Assembly (NCBI GenBank): GCA_951406725.2
Contig: OX597818.1
Span: forward strand, 144,460,001-144,524,000
DNA from: Octopus vulgaris
Lineage: Eukaryota
Direction: 5' to 3'
DNA: 64,000 bases
In this document: piece after piece, positions 690 to 57,340 of the stretch
Position numbering within the stretch: position 1 is the stretch's first letter
How the letters are laid out: every line of letters begins with the position of its first letter
Position numbers and translations under genes: made by a program
Notes under the pieces: generated by a model
What the model saw: only the letters and a program-made list of their open reading frames with translations
Told to the model about the DNA's origin: nothing
The model's database searches: none

Positions 690-1047
690 CCATGTAGTTA
701 TCTTTGGGTGGTCAGGTCATGTGAGTGCTCAGAGGACTAGTTCGTCCAATCGGTGCATGGAAGTGTGCATCAAACACAGTCTGCTTCCATTCTTCATGGT
801 TGAGGTTAAAGCCTTCAGTGAAACTTTTAGACCATTTTGGTAGCACTTTTCTCGGCCAACTCAGAAGCTTTTACTTTGCTGCTTTTCATCATAGAACAGT
901 TTCTTCGAGATCTGGTGATGTAAACTAGGTGACCTGGCCAGTGCAGCTGTAACTGCATCAGAATCATATAGATACTAGGCATTTCAGCATGAATCCTCTG
1001 TATCAGAAATCTTGCCCTATCATTTAATGTGCCAAGACTTTTTCCTA
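690..1047 (-). mobile_element. RTE-clade LINE 3' fragment (decayed)
   Basis: Minus-strand translation MPSIYMILMQLQLHWPGHL, then LKVSLKAF in another frame, resembles the RTE/BovB ORF2 C-terminus (QLRWAGH motif). Confidence 0.7.
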
Positions 1048-1143: not shown

Positions 1144-3100
1144 TTTTGGTTGTAAATCCTTCTTTAATTTAGGATGCCTGAGTTCGTAGATGTTGAGTTG
1201 TAGGGCACGTTGAAAGCATATGTCAATTAGTGAAGGTGGGTAGTTCCTGGTGATGAGCGTATCCTTTAGTTCATGTAATCCTGGGTCCCTGGTGCTTGCA
1301 TTAGAAACTATAGTACATATCCTTTTTGCTAGGTTGAAGGGTATATTCATTCTGGTGTGTCTGGGGTGGCATGAGTTGAATGGCAGATATTGCTTGGAGT
1401 CCGTGGGTTTATAGTATATACCTGTTTCTATTACGTTGTTAGATTTCTTGATGAGGATGTCAAGGAAGGGAAGTTATTGATGGCTATATTCCATTGTGAA
1501 TTGAATGTTTACATCAAGTCCATTTATAAGCGCTTGAAATTCTTTAAGTCTCTATATTTTCATGCCAAAGAATAAAACAGTCATCCAGGTATCTCTTCCA
1601 GTTATTTTCTATGTAGAGGGAGAATGGGCTACCCTATTTTTCTGGAACCTTATGATAAAGACTAATTTCTAGATATCCCACGACTAGGTTAGCAAATGAG
1701 GGGGCCATTCTTGTACCCATTGCAGTCTCCGATTTTTGTCGGTAGAAGTTGTCTTTGAAGACAAAGTAGTTATTCTCCAAGATAAATTTTAACCCTTCTA
1801 TCACAAATTCTTTTTTGATGCGATGTGGGAGTTCATTGGTGTAATTCTTTAACCAGAATTGAATTGCCTCTATTCCTAGGTTGTAGGGGATATTGGAATA
1901 CAGGTTGACTACATCGAAGGGTACTAGTAGGGTGATTTTGTTTATTGTTTCAGGAAGGTGATTGAGCATATCCAGGTCATCCCTTATGTAGCTTTTGACA
2001 TGTTTGAGGAATGGCTTGAAGAGAGTATCTAAAAAGTTACTGAGGCGGTGGGTTTCGCATGCAGGACTTGCTATTATAGGTCTCAATTTGAGGGACTTTG
2101 ATTATTATGTCTGTGGCTATCCTGTATGCGTTACTTATTTTCTCACTTTTGTGTATCTTGGGAATACCATAGATTTGACTGGATTTACTTATGAAATTGG
2201 TCATATAGTCATATTCCTTGTCAGTGAGCCCTTCTGCTGACTGTAGGTTTGGGCCTTTTCATAATATGTTGTGTCTTCTAATATGGATAGTACTAGAGTT
2301 ATATAGTATACCGTGTCAATTAAGACAACTGCACTCCCTTTATCAGCTTCTTTGATTGTTATTGTTTTGTCATCTTTTAATTTGTTCAGCTCAGCCCATT
2401 CTTTTTCGCTGAAATTTGGTTTGTGTTTTTGTTTGTGCATATGTTGATATGGGTAATTTGAGATGTATTCACAGAAATGATCAAGAGTTTTGTTCTTACC
2501 TTTTGAGGGGGTGTAGTTACTTTTTATTTCAGACCAATGATTCATCCTCATTGTATTTGTCGTATTGCTCCTCAGCAAGTTGTAATTTTCTACAGAATTC
2601 CGTGATGTCCTCTTTCATTTCATTGTTGTTGGGGGCCTTGTGGGTTGGGTGTAAACTCGAGCCCTTTGGAAAGTATATTGATTTGGTTTGCTGTTAGTTC
2701 TTTGTGAGTTAGATTGATAATTTTTATCACTTTTGGTTCCTCCTGTCTGTTTGGTGCAATCTCGTGTCTCTGTGTTTGCGTATTGGGTCTAAAAAGTGAT
2801 TGCGGTGGTTGGGACAGTAGCTGTTATGTAGTTGTTCTTTATTGTTGTGGGGTGTTGTGTTGTGATTTATGATGTGGGTTCTTGGAATGATATTGAAAGG
2901 TGTGTCTTGATATCCCATGTTTGGATGTGGTGTTCTAGGGGGCTGTCATTGGTAATTATTGCGTGTGGTACAGGTTTGTTGTGCATGGTTGTTTAGTAGA
3001 TTGCTGGAACGAAAAATTCGTTGGTAACTCTTTATGGCGAGGAGGAGGTTGCTATGTCTATCTTGCGGGTAGTGCTGTTTGAAGTTGGAGTACTCCTGAT
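1141..3100 (-). mobile_element. Penelope-like retroelement, frameshifted RT; GIY-YIG end absent (stops at a microsatellite)
   Basis: ORF pieces ITIKEADKGSAVV (2201-2578), RPIIA...FDVVNLYSNIP...TAMGTRMAPSFANL (1634-2086), WKRYLDD near 1580-1601 and NIPFNLAKRICTIVS...NYPPSLI (1045-1350) are characteristic of Penelope RT. Confidence 0.9.
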
Positions 3101-4731: not shown

Positions 4732-5602
4732 AAGTGTGGTGAATATATTGTCATCTAAATTACACGAAAATGAAAATAACACCTTAACAGATATATTTAG
4801 CAAAATTGATTAAAAATATCATGAAATACTGAAGAGTAAATTTATTCAATAAAATTGCCATTGGCTTCAACTAAAGCCTCCAGACGACTTTGGAATCTCC
4901 AAAATTTCTGGATGGTCTCCTTGTTTAAGTTGTTGAATGTTACCATAATCCTTGCCTTCAGTTTATCTTTGGTGTTACTAGGAGTTTTGTTGGTCTCTTG
5001 CTCAACTGTGCTCGACACATAATAATCAAAGGGTTTGCTGTCTGAGGAGTTAGGTGACCAGATGTTAGGGGTGATGTGGTCGCAGAAATTGTCCGACAGC
5101 CATGACTGGGTACTGCTGCTTGTGTGGCATGGTGCAGAGTTCTGTTGCCAGACATAAGGTATTCTAGCAACCACCTTCTTGAACCAGGGCAGCACTACCT
5201 CTTCCAGGTACTTGATGTTGGCCTCTGTGTTGAGTCTGAGGCCATGTGGGAAGATGAATGGAGGCATAACGTCACCATCACTAGTGATCACTCCAAATAC
5301 CATGATGTTGACTGGATGTTTGATTTTTATCACTCTCAGTACATGTTTTGGGGACCCAGCAAGCCAACAGTTGTTCTGTGTGTTCGCTGTCTGTTTGTAT
5401 TGGAGTTTCTGGTGCAAATGCCAAGCAGCACAGCATGTCGTTTCCAAATTTCTGGCAGAGTGAATTGTGTCATGGTGCTGCTTTTTTCACAGACTGTGCC
5501 CTGCTGACCCTACTATACTGTGCAGTCGACAAAATCAAAAAACAAACAATGCGCAGGCACAAAATCAAAAATAAAACACGATGACAATTTATCCATTGCA
5601 CC

Positions 5603-27198: not shown

Positions 27199-28474
27199 TT
27201 GCGTTGGCAACTAAGTTCCTGCTGTTTTTTTTTTTAATTTTTGGAATTTATTGCATTTTTAAATTTTGGAATCTGTTTTTTTCAAGAATTCTATTTTTGA
27301 ATCATTTTGGAATCTATTTTGATTTTTTTCTAGTTAATTTTAGTTAATTTTTGTTTATTATCAGATCATTAAAATGGAATGTCAAGTTAAGAAAAACAAG
27401 CATTTTTGACACCTCTTTCTTTTCGCTTTTAATCAAAGTTCTAAGGCCGCAAAAGCTGCTCACGACATTTGTTCTGTGTATGGAGAGGGTGTCATAGCTG
27501 AAAGAACTGCTCGTGATGGGTATGCCAAGTTCAAAAATGGAAATTTTGACCTCAAAGACGCACCTTGTTCTGGCCGTCCAGTTGAGTTCAATGAAGAGCA
27601 ATTAAACCAACTTTTGCACGAAAATTCTTGTCAAATGACAAGGGAATTGGCAGAGAAAATGGAATGCTCCCACACTGCTATAGAGAAGCATCTTCACTTG
27701 ATGGGAAAGGTTCAGAAGTGTGGAGCATGGGTTCCGCATGCTTTAAGTGACAAAAACAAAAATCAACGAGCCACAATCTCTGCTGGTTTGCTTACTCGTC
27801 ACCGCTCAACTCATGGACTTGAGCAACAATTTCTTTACCAAATCATTACTGGTGATGAAAAATGGTGCCTGTACATCAATATGAAGCAGCGTAAGGAATG
27901 GCTTAGCCCCGGTAAACAAGCGACACCGCGCGTGAAACAAGATCTTCATCTGTGCAAAACGATGTTGTGCATATGGTGGGACTGGGAAGGGATTATCCAT
28001 TACGAATTGCTTGAACGGAACCAAACGGTCAACGCGGAGCTCTATGTTCAACGGATGGAATGACTCAACACGGCTATTCAAGAAAAAAGACCTAATCAGC
28101 AGTATGGAATTCTTCTGCTGCATGACAATGCTTGCCCTCATATTGCCAATATGACCAATGAAGCCATTTAAATGCATGGCTGGGAAGTGCTGCCACACCC
28201 ACCATACTCTCCTGATGTGGCACCAACGGATTTCCACCTCTTTTGATCTCTTTCAAATGCTATGCACGGAATTTCATTCAATACTGATGCAGAATTGAAA
28301 GCTTGGTTGGATCATTTCTACCAACGAGGTATTGAAAATCTTGTTGAACGTTGGGAAGAAGTTGTAAACAACAAAGGTGAATACATTATTGATTAATTAG
28401 TTGTTATTTTTTTTATTAAACCTTTTAAAAAAATTAATTAAAAAAAAACAGTGGGAACTTAGTTGCCAACTCAA
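27199..28474 (+). mobile_element. Near full-length mariner (DD34D) with TIRs and TA target duplication
   Basis: TIRs TTGCGTTGGCAACTAAGTTCC / GGAACTTAGTTGCCAACTCAA. TA at 27197-27198 and 28475-28476. Confidence 0.95.
27374..28396 (+). pseudogene. Mariner transposase pseudogene
   Basis: WVPHAL, IITGDEKW, LLHDNACPH and HPPYSPDVAPTDFHLF motifs, with in-frame stops and a frameshift. Confidence 0.95.
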
Positions 28475-30175: not shown

Positions 30176-30915
30176 CACATATTACTAATGTAATATGGAG
30201 CTCTGCTACACACTCTTTTTCATATCATTAGCAGAGAGATAAATCTCTGCTATCTCCAGTGCTGAGGCCACCAGATCACATATTTTCAACTTACCTTGGT
30301 CTTGTTATTGATGACTGTTTGACTGCTAGAAGTAGCAGTAACTCGTCTGCCTGCCAGCAATATATAGGAAAACAGTGCCAGAACAGGTGCTGGTATCATA
30401 ATTAGCCAGTGAGCTTGTTAAAAATATATATGTTATTGGCAGAGGGAGCATTAGTACTGAGAGGTAATATTTATCCCCACTTAAGTATGGATGCTTTGCT
30501 AGAACAAACTATATTGTGGTAGATATCATGAGAGAAACTTTCATATACGGCCTCTGTCACTAATATATATTTTTTAACAAGCTCACCAGCACCTGTTCTG
30601 GCACTGTTTTTCCATATATTGCTGGCAAGGAGTTGAGTTGCTGCTATCTCTAGCAGTTGAGTGGCCATCATTGACAAGACCAAGGAAAGTCAAAATCACA
30701 TGATCTGGTAGGCTCAGTGTTGGAGATCGCAGGGATTTTATCTCCCCACTAATTATACAAGCAACAGCGCATGTTGCACCAAAAGCTAATATGAGGGTTT
30801 CTCTCATGGTATCTATTGCAGTATAGTTTGTTCTAATAGAACATCTACGTTTAAGTGGGGATAAATTTAACCTCTTGGTATTAATAATGCCTCTATTGCT
30901 AACATATATTTTTAA
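30176..30915. repeat. Old inverted duplication with permuted block order
   Basis: 30238-30430 is inversely repeated at 30561-30742, and 30416-30545 at ~30790-30915. Confidence 0.8.
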
Positions 30916-31339
30916 TAAAATCTCAGAATATACAATACAAGTACAAGGCAAAACAATATAGACAATAGAGATACAACAATAGATAATATAGATACAAGAT
31001 AAGGCCATACAATATAAACAGAACATAAAGCCATACAAAACTTTACCCTTGGCAGAAAAATATATTATGTAAATATCCACAGTAGAATGGGTGTAATTGT
31101 TTGTTTTGGCACAGTACATCAAAGTGTGAATTAATATTTGTCAGTGATGTTCTTAAGGGAATTTCTATTGCTTTTATTGGTGTATAGTATTTTGTCTTCA
31201 CTGCCATTAAAGTGGAAAAGGTAAATTCACATAGATAAACAAAGAGAAAAGACAGAAGAGTTGCCATTGCTAATTCAGATAGTATTGGAAATTGATTCCA
31301 TATTCAGCCAGAAACTACTTAAGTTTGTTAATGAATATA

Positions 31340-32647
31340 TTGGTTCATCCCATAAATAATTTGGTTTTTTATACTTCTTTTATTTTTCAATGCTCTTCCA
31401 TCTATCAGGTAGACTTGCAAGGCCCCTCTTTCAAAATTCATTTGTTCATGATGAAAAATACTCCTCCAGTTCTGTTCTGACCATGTCTACAGGATTCATA
31501 TTTTTTTCCATCCAAATGATTTTGAAAACTGCAGAATAAATGATAATCAGATGGGACAATGTCTGGTGAATATGGTGGGTGGGGCATTGTTCCCCATTTA
31601 AACTGCTCCAGCCTTTGGAATGTCATCCTTGCTGTATATGACTGAGCATTATCCTGATGGAAGAACACCAATAAAAGCAATAGAAATTCATTTAAGAACA
31701 TCACTGACAAATATTAATTCACACTTTGATGTGTTGTGCCAGAACAAACAATTACACCCATTCTACTGTGGATATTTACATAATATATTTTTTATCTTGA
31801 AACCAAAGATGGCTGTTTCTTCTAGTACTGATTTAGGCCACTCAAGCTGCTTGCAGCAGATCTCCTTTGATATCATTTGGTTTGGGTTCAAAAGTTCAAA
31901 GTGGACTAAACCTTTCATATCCCACCAAACAGACAACACCTTACGAGGGTGAAGACCACCTTTAGCCTAGGGTGCTAGCGTTTCTCCTTTTCCTGCTCAC
32001 TGTCTTCAGTGCTTGACATTTTTATAGAGAATCCATTCCTCATCACCAGTCACTATTCAGTCCAAAACGGGTTCATTTGTGAGACATGACAGTAAAGAAG
32101 AGCAAACATTCACTCTCTGTGTGCAATTAGACTCGGAAAGTTTGTGAGGAACCCAATGATGCAATTTGCTGACTTTTCCAGGAGCATGTAGGTGTTGATG
32201 AATGGTTGAATGACCAAATCCAAGCTTCTCTGCTAGTTCCTCAACAGTTATAATGGGATTTTTTTCCACTAGGGTTTGTATGATGTCCTTGTTGAGCTCT
32301 ACAGATCTTCCAGGACAAGACTCGTCTTCTAGGCTGTACTTACCAGCTCGGAATATTTGGAACTGCCGTTGACACTGGCTTATTGTCCGATCCCCATATA
32401 CTGCATTAATATTCCCTGCACTTTCTGTTGCTTTGTTGCCTTTATTGAACTCATAAAACCAAATATGCTGAATATGGTCCTTTGTCACTTCCATTATTGC
32501 TTTGAAAAAATAACCTCAAAACTTGCACTAAGAATAAGGACAAGGTAAAATTACTTCTTTTATAGCAAGTTGATGCAGGTAGTTTATTCCCCTCCAACTT
32601 TTAGTTCATGCAATTGAGAAAACTGCATTATTTATGGGATGACCCAA
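31340..32647 (-). mobile_element. Mariner element (second family), decayed, with TIRs and TA duplication
   Basis: TIRs TTGGTTCATCCCATAAATAAT / ATTATTTATGGGATGACCCAA. MEVTKDHIQH...WVPHKLS and FHQDNA...HPPYSPDIVPSDYHLF. Confidence 0.93.
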
Positions 32648-45279: not shown

Positions 45280-46860
45280 TGCCTCAATTCAACATCTTTA
45301 TTAGAATAAAGGAAACAGAAGTGTCTGTGATAACCATCGTGGGATATCGCTTCTGTCTATTGCTGGTAAAATTCTTGCTCGACTCTTTCTTAACAGGATC
45401 ACCAAACACTTTGCAAATGATATCTATTCAGAATCCCAGAGCGGATTTCGTTCTGGCCGTGGCACTAACGACATGATATTTTCCCTTCGACAGGTCATGG
45501 AGAAGATACGTGAGAAAAATTAAGAGTTGTTCTTGATATTCGTTAACCTTACTTAGACCTTGGGCACTTAACGGGTAAGCACTATGAAAAGTTATGAAAA
45601 AGCTTGGTATATCTGACAAGATGTTGAATGTTATCATCTCCTTTCATGAAGGAATGAAGGCTGCTGTCGTGTCCGGTGGGGAATTTTCGGCTTCCTTTGA
45701 TGTTACAAATGGCACAAAGCAAGGTTGTGTTATGGCTCCTGTTTTGTTTGCACGCTTCTTTTCAGTGGTGCTGAGGTATGCTTTTGGCGACATACAAAGT
45801 GGTGTCAAATTCCAGTTTCGAACAAATGGTGGACTATTCAATCACCAGCATTTCAAAGCCAGAACACTGCTACGCACCAGTATCATTCGTGATCTACTTT
45901 TTGCAGATGCTGCTGCACTAGTAGCGACTTCTTTAGAGGAAGCTCAAGAACTTCTAGACTGGTTTTCTGCTGCATGTAAAGCGTTTGATTTGACCATCAG
46001 CATAAAGAAGACGGAATAATTCACCAACGTGGCCCTACTCCTAAAAAAATGCTAGGTGTCAAGCAGAGGCCACCGGTTCACAATTTTCCTGACACTCCTA
46101 TACATGCTGTTGGAAAAAACCTAAATTATGTAAAGTAATTTACACATCTTGGTAGTAAAGTGAATTAGAGCGCTTCCCTTAATGATGAAATCGTTAATCG
46201 TCTTGCGAAGGCAACCAACACATTTGGCAAACTCCGTCATCGCCTCTGAAATGAAAGGGGCATCAGACTTGACACCAAAGTACAGGTCTATAAAGTAGCT
46301 GTTCTTACTACTCTCTTGTATGGCTCAGAATCGTGGATACCCTATAGACGACACATTAACCAACTAGACATCTTTCACAAAGGCTGTCTGAGGACAATCT
46401 GCGGTTATTCTCTAAAAGTCAGAGTTTCTAATGACGACCTGTTTAGCAAGTGTAAGACTCGTGAAATCGTGACCTTCCTTTTGCAGTCACAGTTGCGCTG
46501 GGCCGGTCATGTCAGAATGAGTGACGAAAAAGTACCCAAATTCATGTAGAGCCCGCTTGAGAGTGACTACAAGAATGTTGGTCGACCATGGCTCAGCTAT
46601 AAGGACAAACTGAAGGATAACCTCTTAGTGATGAAGATAGCTTACAACACCTTTGAGCGAACAAAAGGGAGATCGGTGTGTCAAAATAGTATTAGAAACT
46701 TTGCTGCAACCAGCATTAACAGGCTTCGGGGTGCAAGGCAAAGGAGAAAAGCGGTTGCAAATATACCACTTGCACTGACCTGTAATCATCATATTTGCAG
46801 GATCTGTGGGCTTTTTTTGCAAATCGTTAGTGGGACTCAAATGTCACATTATTGACATAA
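45280..46860 (+). mobile_element. RTE/BovB-like LINE RT pseudogene
   Basis: GTKQGCVMAPVLF, DLLFADAAAL, LYGSESW, QLRWAGHV and a C-terminal Cys/His motif. Confidence 0.9.
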
Positions 46861-51999: not shown

Positions 52000-52180
52000 T
52001 TGCTTTGCGGTATTTCATCTGTCGACCTTACGTTCTGATTTCAAATTCCGCCGAGGTCGACTTTGCCTTTCATCCTTTCGGGGTCGATAAATTAAGTACC
52101 AGTTGCGTACTGGGGTCGGTCTAATCGACTGGCTCCCTCCCCCAAATTTTCGGGCTTTGTGCCTAGAGTAGAAAAGAAAA
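52000..52180 (+). mobile_element. CORE-SINE (13024 family), 5'-truncated
   Basis: CAAATTCCGCCGAGGTCGACTTTGCCTTTCATCCTTTCGGGGTCGATAAA identical to the 13.1 kb copy. Confidence 0.85.
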
Positions 52181-52293: not shown

Positions 52294-52836
52294 CAGGGCT
52301 GGATTAAGACTAATCTAAGCACTTAAATTTGGGTGCTCCTATATATATGTAATTCAAGAAATAAACAATAATATAAACATAACTAATTTTTTTTTTCTAA
52401 AATAAAAGAAAAAGCTAACTTAATAACACAAGAAAACACTAGGGGACGAGCTTACTTCACTGGCGATGCCCTAGCATGGCCACAACCCTAGGGCTGAAAC
52501 ATAACAATAATAGTAAGCCATAAAATAAATTTGTTTCAAAATGAAACAAAACTAACAGTGAGATGGAAAATAATGTTTGTATACTTCAACTTTTTTTTCA
52601 TATTTGAAGTTTTCTCCTACCCTTTTTTTAATTGCAAAGTCTTTGAATGAGATCCTCAAAATTAATCTTACGTAACACGAATGATTCTATACTTAGTAGA
52701 GATAAGGCTTTCCGAATATTATTTTAGCAAGTTTAAAATTATTTCTTTTGTGCCATTTATCATTTCTGTGGTGCCACGCCCTACACTTGATGCCCTAAAC
52801 ACGTGCTTATTTTGCTTAATGGTTAATCCAATGCTG
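52294..52836 (-). mobile_element. hAT deletion derivative carrying the transposase C-terminus
   Basis: TIR-like CAGGGCTGGATTA / TAATCCAATGCTG and a partial 8-bp TSD (..TGAGT). Minus-strand LSLLSIESFVLRKINFEDLI..DFA resembles the end of the hAT dimerisation domain. Confidence 0.7.
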
Positions 52837-53413
52837 ATGTGAGTTTTTAGTCCTTGATTCAACCAATATGCACTCCAGTTGAAGCAGAACGAGCAAGCGA
52901 CATTACAAGAAAATTCCCCTGGTATAGACGACGGATGAAAACAGTTTACCCCCCCCTGTGAATTTAATGAAGAGCTGGATTAGAAATTCTGACACATTTA
53001 CCGAAAACAACAGTCATCTGAAGAAGGCAGGAGGGCACAACGTCCGAAATAATATAACCACGCTGAGGATACTAGTCCAAATATTTTAGTCTTTAATAAT
53101 TGTTTCTAATTCAGACATAAGAACAGTACTTTTGACGGGAAGGGGTTAGTCGGTTATGTTGAACTTCGTACTTGACTGGTACTTAATTTTATCGATCCCG
53201 AAAGGTAAAGTTGGCTTTGACAGGATTTATACATATTATAAGAAAGAACTACATCTTTCAAAACTTCCATGCTTCCTGAAGTCCGCCAACACTACACCTG
53301 ATGTTTTTTAAGTTGTAGTGCACTTGACTACTGTATACAACAATTTCTTTCACATTATATATATTAGAAATATTGCATTAGTAAATCTCTCAGAGTTATG
53401 CAGTAGCAGCACG

Positions 53414-53829
53414 ATAAAGTGATGATGGTTTGTTGCCAACTTAATGTGGCAGTCTTTGGAAAGAGAAGAATGCTATTGCTATTCAGCCCCAAGAGACACC
53501 GTTTCTAGTTGGCTACATGACACAAGCGTTCTGTGTCCTTAAGTTTTCAAACAGGAGAAATAAGCACCTCCCTCCCAACAAAGCCAGCAATCAGAGACTA
53601 GTTTCAGGGTAATTGCACTTCATCAGTCTGGAGTAGCTTGGCTTTGTTAGCTGTTGGTGCTAAATCACTGTTGAAAACTTATAGAATTTCAGGTGAAATA
53701 AATTCACTGATCTACAAAATTAGAAATATTGCATTTCTAACCAACTAGAAATGGTGTTTCTTGAGGCTAAATAGCAGTAGCATTCTTCCCTTTCTTGGGA
53801 CCGCCACATTAAGTTAGCTACAGACCATC

Positions 53830-53836
<7 letters not shown>
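53414..53836. repeat. Fold-back element with ~100-bp imperfect outer arms and a nested inner hairpin, next to (TA)n
   Basis: 53414-53515 mirrors 53738-53836. Inner pairs AGTTTTCAA/TTGAAAACT, AGCACC/GGTGCT and AACAAAGCCA/TGGCTTTGTT. Confidence 0.85.
53592..53630 (-). ncRNA. Minimal type I hammerhead ribozyme at the apex of the fold-back
   Basis: Minus strand CAGA-CTGATGA-AGTGCAATTACCCT-GAAAC-TA-GTC-TCTG. Intact core, stem I CAGA/TCTG, stem II with two mismatches, palindromic ACTAGT. Confidence 0.75.
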
Positions 53837-53874
<38 letters not shown>

Positions 53875-56800: not shown

Positions 56801-56919
56801 TAAAATAACAAATTGTTTTGATGCTTTCAATCAATCTAAGCATGACAGATTTAGAGCATACATCATCGTCATTTAACGTCCACTTTCCATGCTTGCATTG
56901 ATTGGATGGTTTGATTGAG

Positions 56920-57340
56920 GACTGGCAATTCCTCTGTTATTGCCTGGAGGACGTTGATGAATAAGAGGGGGCTGAGGACTGATCTTTGATGAACCCCTAC
57001 TTCTACTCGGAATTCTTCACTGTACTCATTGCCAACCCTCACCTTACTGACAGGATCCCTGTACATGGCTTGTACAACTCTCACCAACCACTCATCTATC
57101 CCTAGTTTCCACATTGACCACCAGATAAGGGATTGGAGGACCCTGTCAGGGGCTTTCTCCATGTCAACAAAAGCCATGTACAGAGGTTTATCTTTCTAGG
57201 AATTTCTCCTGCTGCTGTCTTTCCACAAATTTAACATCAGTGGTGTTTCTCACTGACAAACCCAAACTGCATCTCATCTAAACTAACTCTCTCCCTAATT
57301 AGTTGGGTTATGACCCTCTCCATGACTTTCATCCAACAGC
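56920..57340 (-). mobile_element. RTE LINE RT fragment
   Basis: MAFVDMEKAPDRV...VGVHQRSVLSPLLF. Confidence 0.88.

Follow-up and report, generated by a model that had tools for sequence, protein, structure and literature searches.

Anatomy of the locus

The window, i.e., the whole 64-kb stretch of DNA analysed here, is repeat-rich animal DNA with mariner and reverse transcriptase (RT) fragments and 77 TA tracts of at least 9 nt. It holds a complete repeat unit on the minus strand (53385..53740; 356 nt, 39.6% G+C, non-coding) that carries a type I hammerhead ribozyme (53586..53638, same strand), followed on the plus strand by an inverted, 5'-truncated second copy (53741..53836), which is the reverse complement of 53414-53512, lacks the ribozyme and runs with its 3' end into a TA tract. 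In other words, it consists of a 1.06-mer and a partial copy in inverted orientation, with one ribozyme. Along the ribozyme strand, 53740 to 53364 form the main copy and 53741 to 53836 the inverted copy; the two stand head to head, with both 3' ends running into TA. The longest stop-free frame of the unit has 55 codons and the longest ATG frame around the unit as a circle 32. A second copy of the element was not found within the 64-kb window.

The hammerhead comprises the core CUGAUGA (53626-53620), helix II (53619-53616/53609-53606, one mismatch), a loop 2 CAAUUA, the GAAA box (53605-53602), a helix III formed by the palindromic A-CUAG-U with tetraloop CUAG, and a helix I with the internal loop UAC/U that has 4 bp in this copy, all on the minus strand. 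Cleavage is predicted 3' of C53596. The UAC/U internal loop and the CAAUUA loop resemble what we take to be the contact loops of the Schistosoma ribozyme. The structure-complete type I motif is found at one locus in the 64-kb window, compared to 0.03 loci in block-shuffled windows (100 shuffles); for a relaxed hammerhead scan, the shuffled expectation is 0.19 loci per window. Rfam returned no hammerhead match, be it at the gathering score or at E-values up to 10. The fold that is competent for catalysis is predicted to be ~5 kcal/mol less stable than the minimum-energy fold in this copy (-18.3 vs. -23.5).

The original prediction named a 39-nt minimal hammerhead on the minus strand with a GUC site. 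Motif, strand and GUC (C at 53596) hold, while the term 'minimal' does not apply in its Penelope sense. Minimal hammerheads of Penelope-like elements are described in the available portion of PMC4209133 with a helix II of 7-8 bp, a bulged base after the first core box and a G-C closing pair, whereas helix II has 4 positions here, no bulge and an A-U closing pair. In the canonical metazoan hammerhead of the same source, helix I has 6 bp, helix II has 4 bp and helix III is short and palindromic, and the weakness of helix III is reported to impede monomer cleavage.

A family-specific hammerhead pattern gave 0 matches in metagenome contigs. Looser core patterns hit 7 metagenome and 14 viral loci, none of which shares more than the core motif with the unit (best E 0.15) or matches any of four Penelope-type proteins. 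One of the metagenome contigs (218-356/527-665 of L007) shows a hammerhead core with an ACUAGU palindrome inside an 86% inverted repeat, i.e., an unrelated case in which a fold-back encloses a Penelope-type ribozyme. Two viral contigs (L012 and L013) share identical loci at 1001-1033 (plus strand) where the hammerhead core is well formed and helix II is paired; they are unrelated to the present family.

Outer inverted arms of ~100 bp, as predicted, are present: 53423-53515 and 53738-53830 are 84% complementary over 93 nt, and an extended alignment (53414-53515/53738-53836, one 3-nt gap) reaches 82% over 102 columns. The left arm (53414..53515, minus strand) is ordinary unit sequence that is duplicated in inverted orientation at the right, where the inverted copy starts (53741) exactly at the unit's end (53740). 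The three inner paired blocks (53540-53550/53671-53681, 53563-53568/53656-53661 and 53575-53586/53639-53650) were recovered in the folds of both strands. Respective folding of the inner 147 nt, which had been proposed as a check, gave z = -4.9 for the minus and -3.6 for the plus strand, with 0/200 shuffles equally stable on either strand. The imperfect inner stem (53540..53681, minus strand, ~35 predicted pairs) extends hammerhead helix I and lies inside the unit. We conclude that the long outer stem stems from the insertion of a small many-copy repeat, which left a second, partial copy in inverted orientation, and that only the inner stem of the hairpin (~60 nt per side) belongs to the repeat unit.

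The arm alignment stops at 53414, and family sequence goes on for 50 nt past the left arm. This one-sided extension ('tail'; 53364..53413, minus strand) is the 3' end of the main copy and is absent from the inverted copy. Its last 21 nt repeat an AU-rich hairpin of 8 bp (53720..53740, minus strand), which constitutes the 5' end of the main copy as well as the fold-back junction. The last three bases of this hairpin overlap the start of the inverted copy, i.e., there is a microhomology of 2-3 nt.

The TA tracts that had been noticed on both sides (53356-53364 and 53834-53873) directly abut the ends of the element; the latter is a (TA)20 tract and forms the right side of the target. The left target sequence (53350..53364, plus strand), which includes the short TA tract, is 14/15 identical to 53828-53842 and is thus a candidate 15-nt target-site duplication. 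This candidate is weak, since 182/2,926 (6%) of the window's TA-tract pairs also match in at least 5/6 preceding bases. With regard to the microsatellite target at this one locus, 0.6% of the window positions are within 2 nt of a TA tract end.

Several further repeats are found in the window. A broken, frameshifted RT of the RT+GIY-YIG (Penelope-type) family, in which both domains are often present, is located at 1156-2760 (minus strand) and ends at a TA/CA tract. Its best identity among the 120 matches listed is 77%, to an Octopus sinensis protein, and it shows neither a hammerhead nor similarity to the 356-nt unit. At 30241-30925, there is an unrelated fold-back element of two adjoining inverted pairs (154 nt at 80% and 137 nt at 75%) without a hammerhead core; within it, 30720-30789 matches 53647-53717 weakly (72%, E 0.003). 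Based on Pfam, mariner domains are found at 27410-28063 and 32057-32515 and RVT_1 at 45588-46019 and, weakly, at 56869-57195, while 4842-5486 is transposase-like by eye with no Pfam match. Finally, 53018-53049 (plus strand) matches a Penelope minimal hammerhead in its core only (CUGAAGA, bulged base, GG...CC, GAAA), without helix I; it lies ~310 nt upstream of the element, within sequence that is nearly single-copy, and is possibly an old relic.

The repeat family in related organisms

We compared 4 of 24 listed public runs with positions 52700-53833 at 80% likeness, i.e., three DNA contig sets (X1, X2, X9) and one RNA read set (X22), all of which come from related organisms and not from this assembly (best word share 0.27). 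The flank 52890-53003 shows single-contig depth (31-74). Relative to this single-copy flank, the depth over the element is 149-936x (X1), 172-1,143x (X2) and 151-905x (X9), which points to hundreds of copies, where depth sums are not to be read as copy numbers. About 1/4 of the depth lacks 3 nt at 53420. A depth spike of ~10x the neighbouring bins is observed for 53764-53801 in all three DNA runs, perhaps due to cross-mapping from a commoner repeat. Other very high-copy repeat fragments flank the element (52700-52851 and 53156-53345), and 53175-53205 recurs at 52074, 13133 and 9981.

In 3/3 DNA runs, we observe back-joints that lead from 53740 to 53392/53397: 1 in X1, 4 in X2 and 4+2 in X9. 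Their bridging letters resemble 53385-53396, such that the sequence runs from 53740 back to 53385 and the unit is ~356 nt long and arranged head-to-tail. The shorter side of these back-joints measures only 25-62 nt, i.e., continuity is seen and complete dimers are not; accordingly, no array with two complete ribozymes was found in the contigs of the three DNA runs.

A direct repeat of 16 nt had been reported at the two ends of the unit. It is exact over 17 nt (53363-53379/53719-53735) and identical at 20/22 positions when extended, while the longest direct repeat in 1,000 shuffles has length 12. Since the letters of 53736-53737 are found at 53380-53381 in 96-100% of the depth (X1, X2, X9, X22), 53364-53384 and 53720-53740 form an identical 21-nt hairpin in the family. 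Judged from these family letters, the direct repeat is the 21-nt terminal overlap of a head-to-tail unit.

The family also informs on the divergence of the two arms. Most arm mismatches are indeed transitions (12/14, among the 90 positions of 53423-53512), which had been attributed to either age or a G-U-tolerant structure. The majority family letter is listed for 8 of the 14 mismatches and agrees with the letter of the opposite arm in 8/8 cases; this check is based on the 40 of 348 family-letter differences that are visible. Five of these private changes are in the left and three in the right arm, i.e., each arm decayed independently. Among the transitions, 5/12 yield G-U pairs on the ribozyme (minus) strand and 7/12 on the other strand. 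Thus, age is upheld by the private changes in both arms, while a G-U-tolerant structure is disfavoured given the missing strand bias. None of the 14 mismatches is a compensatory change (by definition, none pairs on both strands). On the letters compared, the arm divergence is the decay of two copies and not the result of selection on a stem. At 53761, in the bin beside the 53764-53801 depth spike, the letter common to both arms differs from the family majority, which would fit a single template; in view of the adjoining spike, this position was given no weight.

When folded as a circle, the unit shows z = -4.8 on the minus (ribozyme) strand and -2.3 on the plus strand (60 shuffles). Outside the arms and helices I/II, six inner-unit differences are tabulated (53556, 53559, 53647, 53692, 53699, 53701), of which two are paired in the circular fold, two are unpaired and two are RNA-only. 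Provided that their partners are as in the window, the family letters at 53647 and 53692 would preserve pairing as G-U, and this on the minus strand only.

For the ribozyme, the effect of family letters was read pair by pair. The family letters at 53591 (89, 84, 99 and 88% in X1, X2, X9 and X22, respectively) and 53590 (16, 57, 98 and 89%) restore the two outer pairs of helix I, which then has 6 bp in most contigs. The family letter at 53617 (81-93%) still mismatches the helix II partner base as in the window, a partner that is outside the 40/348 visible differences. With family letters, the motif may read as a type I hammerhead of the canonical form, in which helix III is weak and palindromic and helix II keeps one mismatch. 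Given the damage in helices I and II of its single ribozyme, the locus most likely releases no RNA.

Fold-backs are observed in other copies as well. Among the 15 joints listed, 5 skip from the unit to the right arm (53512>53776, 53551>53774, 53554>53741, 53644>53753 and 53644>53770), and a sixth fold-back joint in another copy is 53515>53741; with 95 further joints beyond those listed, the fold-back count is at least six. At the 53554>53741 joint, 15 of the final 17 bridging letters agree with the reverse complement of 53513-53529 (aligned by hand). Its inverted copy is therefore 17 nt longer than that of the window and cannot be produced by deletion of the window structure, while some of the other skip joints could be deletions. 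Furthermore, three of the listed contigs (4, 14, 18) end 5-6 letters past an alignment stop at 53423-53425, near the right arm's end. As far as such joints can tell, the fold-back recurs among family members, and its breakpoints vary. Three 'opposite strand' joints (53455/53795, 53520/53741, 53521/53743) were rejected as fold-backs, since they represent continuous family sequence split between the two arms, and the joints 53395/53833 and 53424/53551 were left out of the count.

The RNA run X22 (one cDNA run, ~6% read) covers the element thinly and in both mate directions. Its ribozyme bins are ~4x deeper than their neighbours, but this is also where the X9 DNA has its greatest depth, and 98% of the matching X22 reads run on unlike the stretch. 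At 53699, 18/18 X22 reads carry a letter that is present in 0.4% of the X9 depth, i.e., the reads there come from a rare variant copy. Based on these three observations, we rejected the X22 reads as expression of this locus or as circles. Neither an end pile-up at the cut site nor a back-joint was found in X22, a cDNA library that need not capture circles.

Comparison with known elements

The following comparisons refer to the portions of the cited sources that were available. Metazoan non-LTR retrozymes have units of 350-390 bp in mussel, 220-240 bp in coral and comparable sizes in axolotl (Rtz_331 and Rtz_353) (PMC7229834, Cervera and de la Pena 2020). The element shares with them its unit size (150-450 bp class), many copies, a G+C content below 50% and the lack of an ORF (PMC7229834), as well as a type I hammerhead with intact core, a self-paired unit and a head-to-tail junction. 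Its helix III is built as in the axolotl HHR_Amex1, i.e., one pair closed off by a tetraloop that is palindromic, and HHR_Amex1 cuts well only as a dimer (PMC7229834). In that respect it is of the weak amphibian type, whereas most invertebrate retrozymes show efficient monomer cleavage (PMC7229834). In contrast to metazoan retrozyme arrays, the locus is not a tandem array but the 1.06-mer with its inverted partial copy, and helix II closes with A-U.

Vertebrate retrozymes are described as non-autonomous Penelope-like derivatives that include dispersed 'monomers', a link that is argued from their co-occurrence and from homology to the pLTR (Li, Clavereau and Pollet 2026, bioRxiv 10.64898/2026.07.22.740005). 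Like these 'monomers', our element is a solo dispersed copy of a tandem-type unit and inactive by the two-ribozyme criterion of that preprint. Its main text contains neither 'tail' nor 'mollus', and 'inverted' only within a reference title. For Penelope-like insertions, an inverted 5'-truncated copy at the 5' end, a tail of 30-40 bp at one end and a bias for microsatellites are reported (PMC8557442, Craig et al. 2021). The inverted truncated copy against the 5' end, the one-sided extension, the TA microsatellite and the type I hammerhead are all shared with such insertions (PMC8557442, PMC4209133), while the element differs from Penelope-like elements in that it has no RT or GIY-YIG ORF, a probably canonical instead of a minimal ribozyme, and a tail of 50 instead of 30-40 nt.

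Given these parallels, and with a broken RT of the RT+GIY-YIG family present in the window, we consider it likely that the locus is a decayed, dispersed copy of a non-LTR retrozyme, i.e., of a non-autonomous Penelope-like unit of ~356 nt with one canonical type I hammerhead, probably in an octopus genome. Counting against this are a tail longer than described, the lack of similarity between the unit and the window's Penelope remnant, the low share (16%) in X1 of the 53590 letter needed for a complete helix I, the remaining helix II mismatch, the RNA run with neither a cut-site pile-up nor a back-joint, and the finding that arrays of two complete ribozymes are absent from the contigs.

The same fold-back, tail and TA anatomy would also result if the locus were a solo truncated end of an autonomous Penelope-like retrotransposon, i.e., its pseudo-LTR and tail with an inverted copy, without any independent small unit. 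Penelope-like elements occur in this genome, truncated ends are their commonest form (PMC4209133; bioRxiv 10.64898/2026.07.22.740005), and the alignment of an X9 contig of 3,838 nt is confined to 53425-53740, such that its other 3.5 kb are outside our view. Against this stands that the tail runs straight back into the ribozyme part within 356 nt and without an ORF, that the 53380 junction context is as deep as the rest of the unit, and that the ribozyme lacks the minimal traits of Penelope (7-8 bp helix II, bulge, G-C closing). Regarding an RT+GIY-YIG ORF for the unit, the four family proteins match nothing but 1156-2760 in the 64-kb window (tblastn). We thus regard a solo Penelope end as unlikely.

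Less probable still is that the whole 470 nt were selected as a single viroid-like rod RNA tipped by the ribozyme. The hairpin is indeed very stable on the minus strand (z = -19.4, TA tract included), which folds slightly better than the plus strand, and the inner stem is real. On the other hand, the outer arm is a duplicate, both sides of which carry private mutations without compensatory change, G-U pairs are no more frequent on the ribozyme strand (5 minus vs. 7 plus), the breakpoints vary among copies, and a single ribozyme, here damaged in helices I and II, cannot release both ends. We therefore consider the rod reading largely refuted. For the viroid/retrozyme-like long rod of the original prediction, this means that the retrozyme-like character and an inner stem with a hammerhead tip inside the unit stand, but not the long rod as a functional RNA, since its outer arm is a second inverted copy. 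The hammerhead and the self-paired RNA are shared with viroids and plant LTR retrozymes; the type I motif and the origin of the long rod as a product of DNA insertion set the element apart. Plant retrozymes feature type III motifs, LTRs, PBS, PPT and 4-bp duplications (bioRxiv 10.64898/2026.07.22.740005, PMC7761336).

A MITE or fold-back DNA transposon with ~100-bp terminal inverted repeats, a TA target and a captured hammerhead fragment is the least credible alternative: inverted arms and TA flanks are present and an unrelated fold-back element exists at 30241-30925, but the left arm is not terminal (family sequence extends 50 nt beyond it) and is continuous with the interior (the listed contigs 6, 11, 13 and 14 run from inside the arm through 53646-53676), which dismisses the arms as an unrelated MITE, and a head-to-tail unit with variable fold-back points does not fit either. 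In summary, the element resembles in its workings, and probably is, a metazoan non-LTR retrozyme; it is neither an autonomous Penelope-like element nor a MITE nor a viroid-like rod.

Proposed life cycle and significance

Under the retrozyme interpretation, tandem copies elsewhere would be transcribed on the ribozyme strand. Two ACUAGU palindromes may then pair to form a 6-bp helix III, such that the ribozymes would cut as a dimer and release unit-length RNA, which a host ligase may circularise. A Penelope-type RT/GIY-YIG enzyme would cut a TA tract and prime cDNA synthesis from both DNA ends: a first cDNA of 377 nt (one unit plus 21 nt) would start at 53364 and extend to the hairpin at 53740, and a second of ~100 nt would start at the AU-rich site 53414. 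Joining of both cDNAs at the 2-3 nt microhomology would produce the head-to-head fold-back, whose arms would subsequently drift apart neutrally. Since the two reverse transcriptions cover overlapping parts of the unit, they would need two templates, or a multimer or circle. A copy slightly longer than one unit is expected from a circular or tandem template (PMC7761336, available portion). If a circle is made, it would be ~356 nt long, lack the right arm and not originate from this single-ribozyme locus.

A further-reaching claim, which we put forward tentatively and hold to be somewhat less probable than its opposite, is that a hitherto undescribed cephalopod retrozyme family with hundreds of copies in several related organisms may still make circular RNAs of ~355 nt via a dimer-type canonical hammerhead, with dispersed copies that bear the full Penelope footprint of a variable head-to-head inversion, a one-sided tail and a TA target. 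If true, the sequences would provide direct evidence for the mobilisation of animal retrozymes by a Penelope-type RT and endonuclease, where a single cut is primed at both of its ends and the 21-nt hairpin indicates where copying starts and stops.

Cephalopod hammerheads as such are already known, given 235 'hammerhead 1' loci in the giant squid (PMC6962438, in the portion available). The main text of PMC7229834, supplement aside, contains no cephalopod retrozyme family in its available part. The word 'octopus' is absent from one of two supplement files of PMC4209133, while PMC10886601 is listed as containing both 'retrozyme' and 'octopus'. Among the titles and abstract beginnings found, there is no octopus retrozyme or fold-back retrozyme insertion; supplements, Repbase or subscription papers may hold the family.

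This single locus is probably inert, and it is a decayed representative of a type of animal mobile element that is already known. For scans, it adds the caution that an insertion scar can take the form of a long hairpin enclosing a hammerhead. With regard to the enzyme that moves animal retrozymes, Penelope-like elements have been called likely candidates (PMC7229834, PMC7761336), and the 2026 preprint leaves the mobilisation mechanism open in its available text (bioRxiv 10.64898/2026.07.22.740005). Family copies with a Penelope-type inversion and tail allow a direct test of which enzyme moves animal retrozymes.
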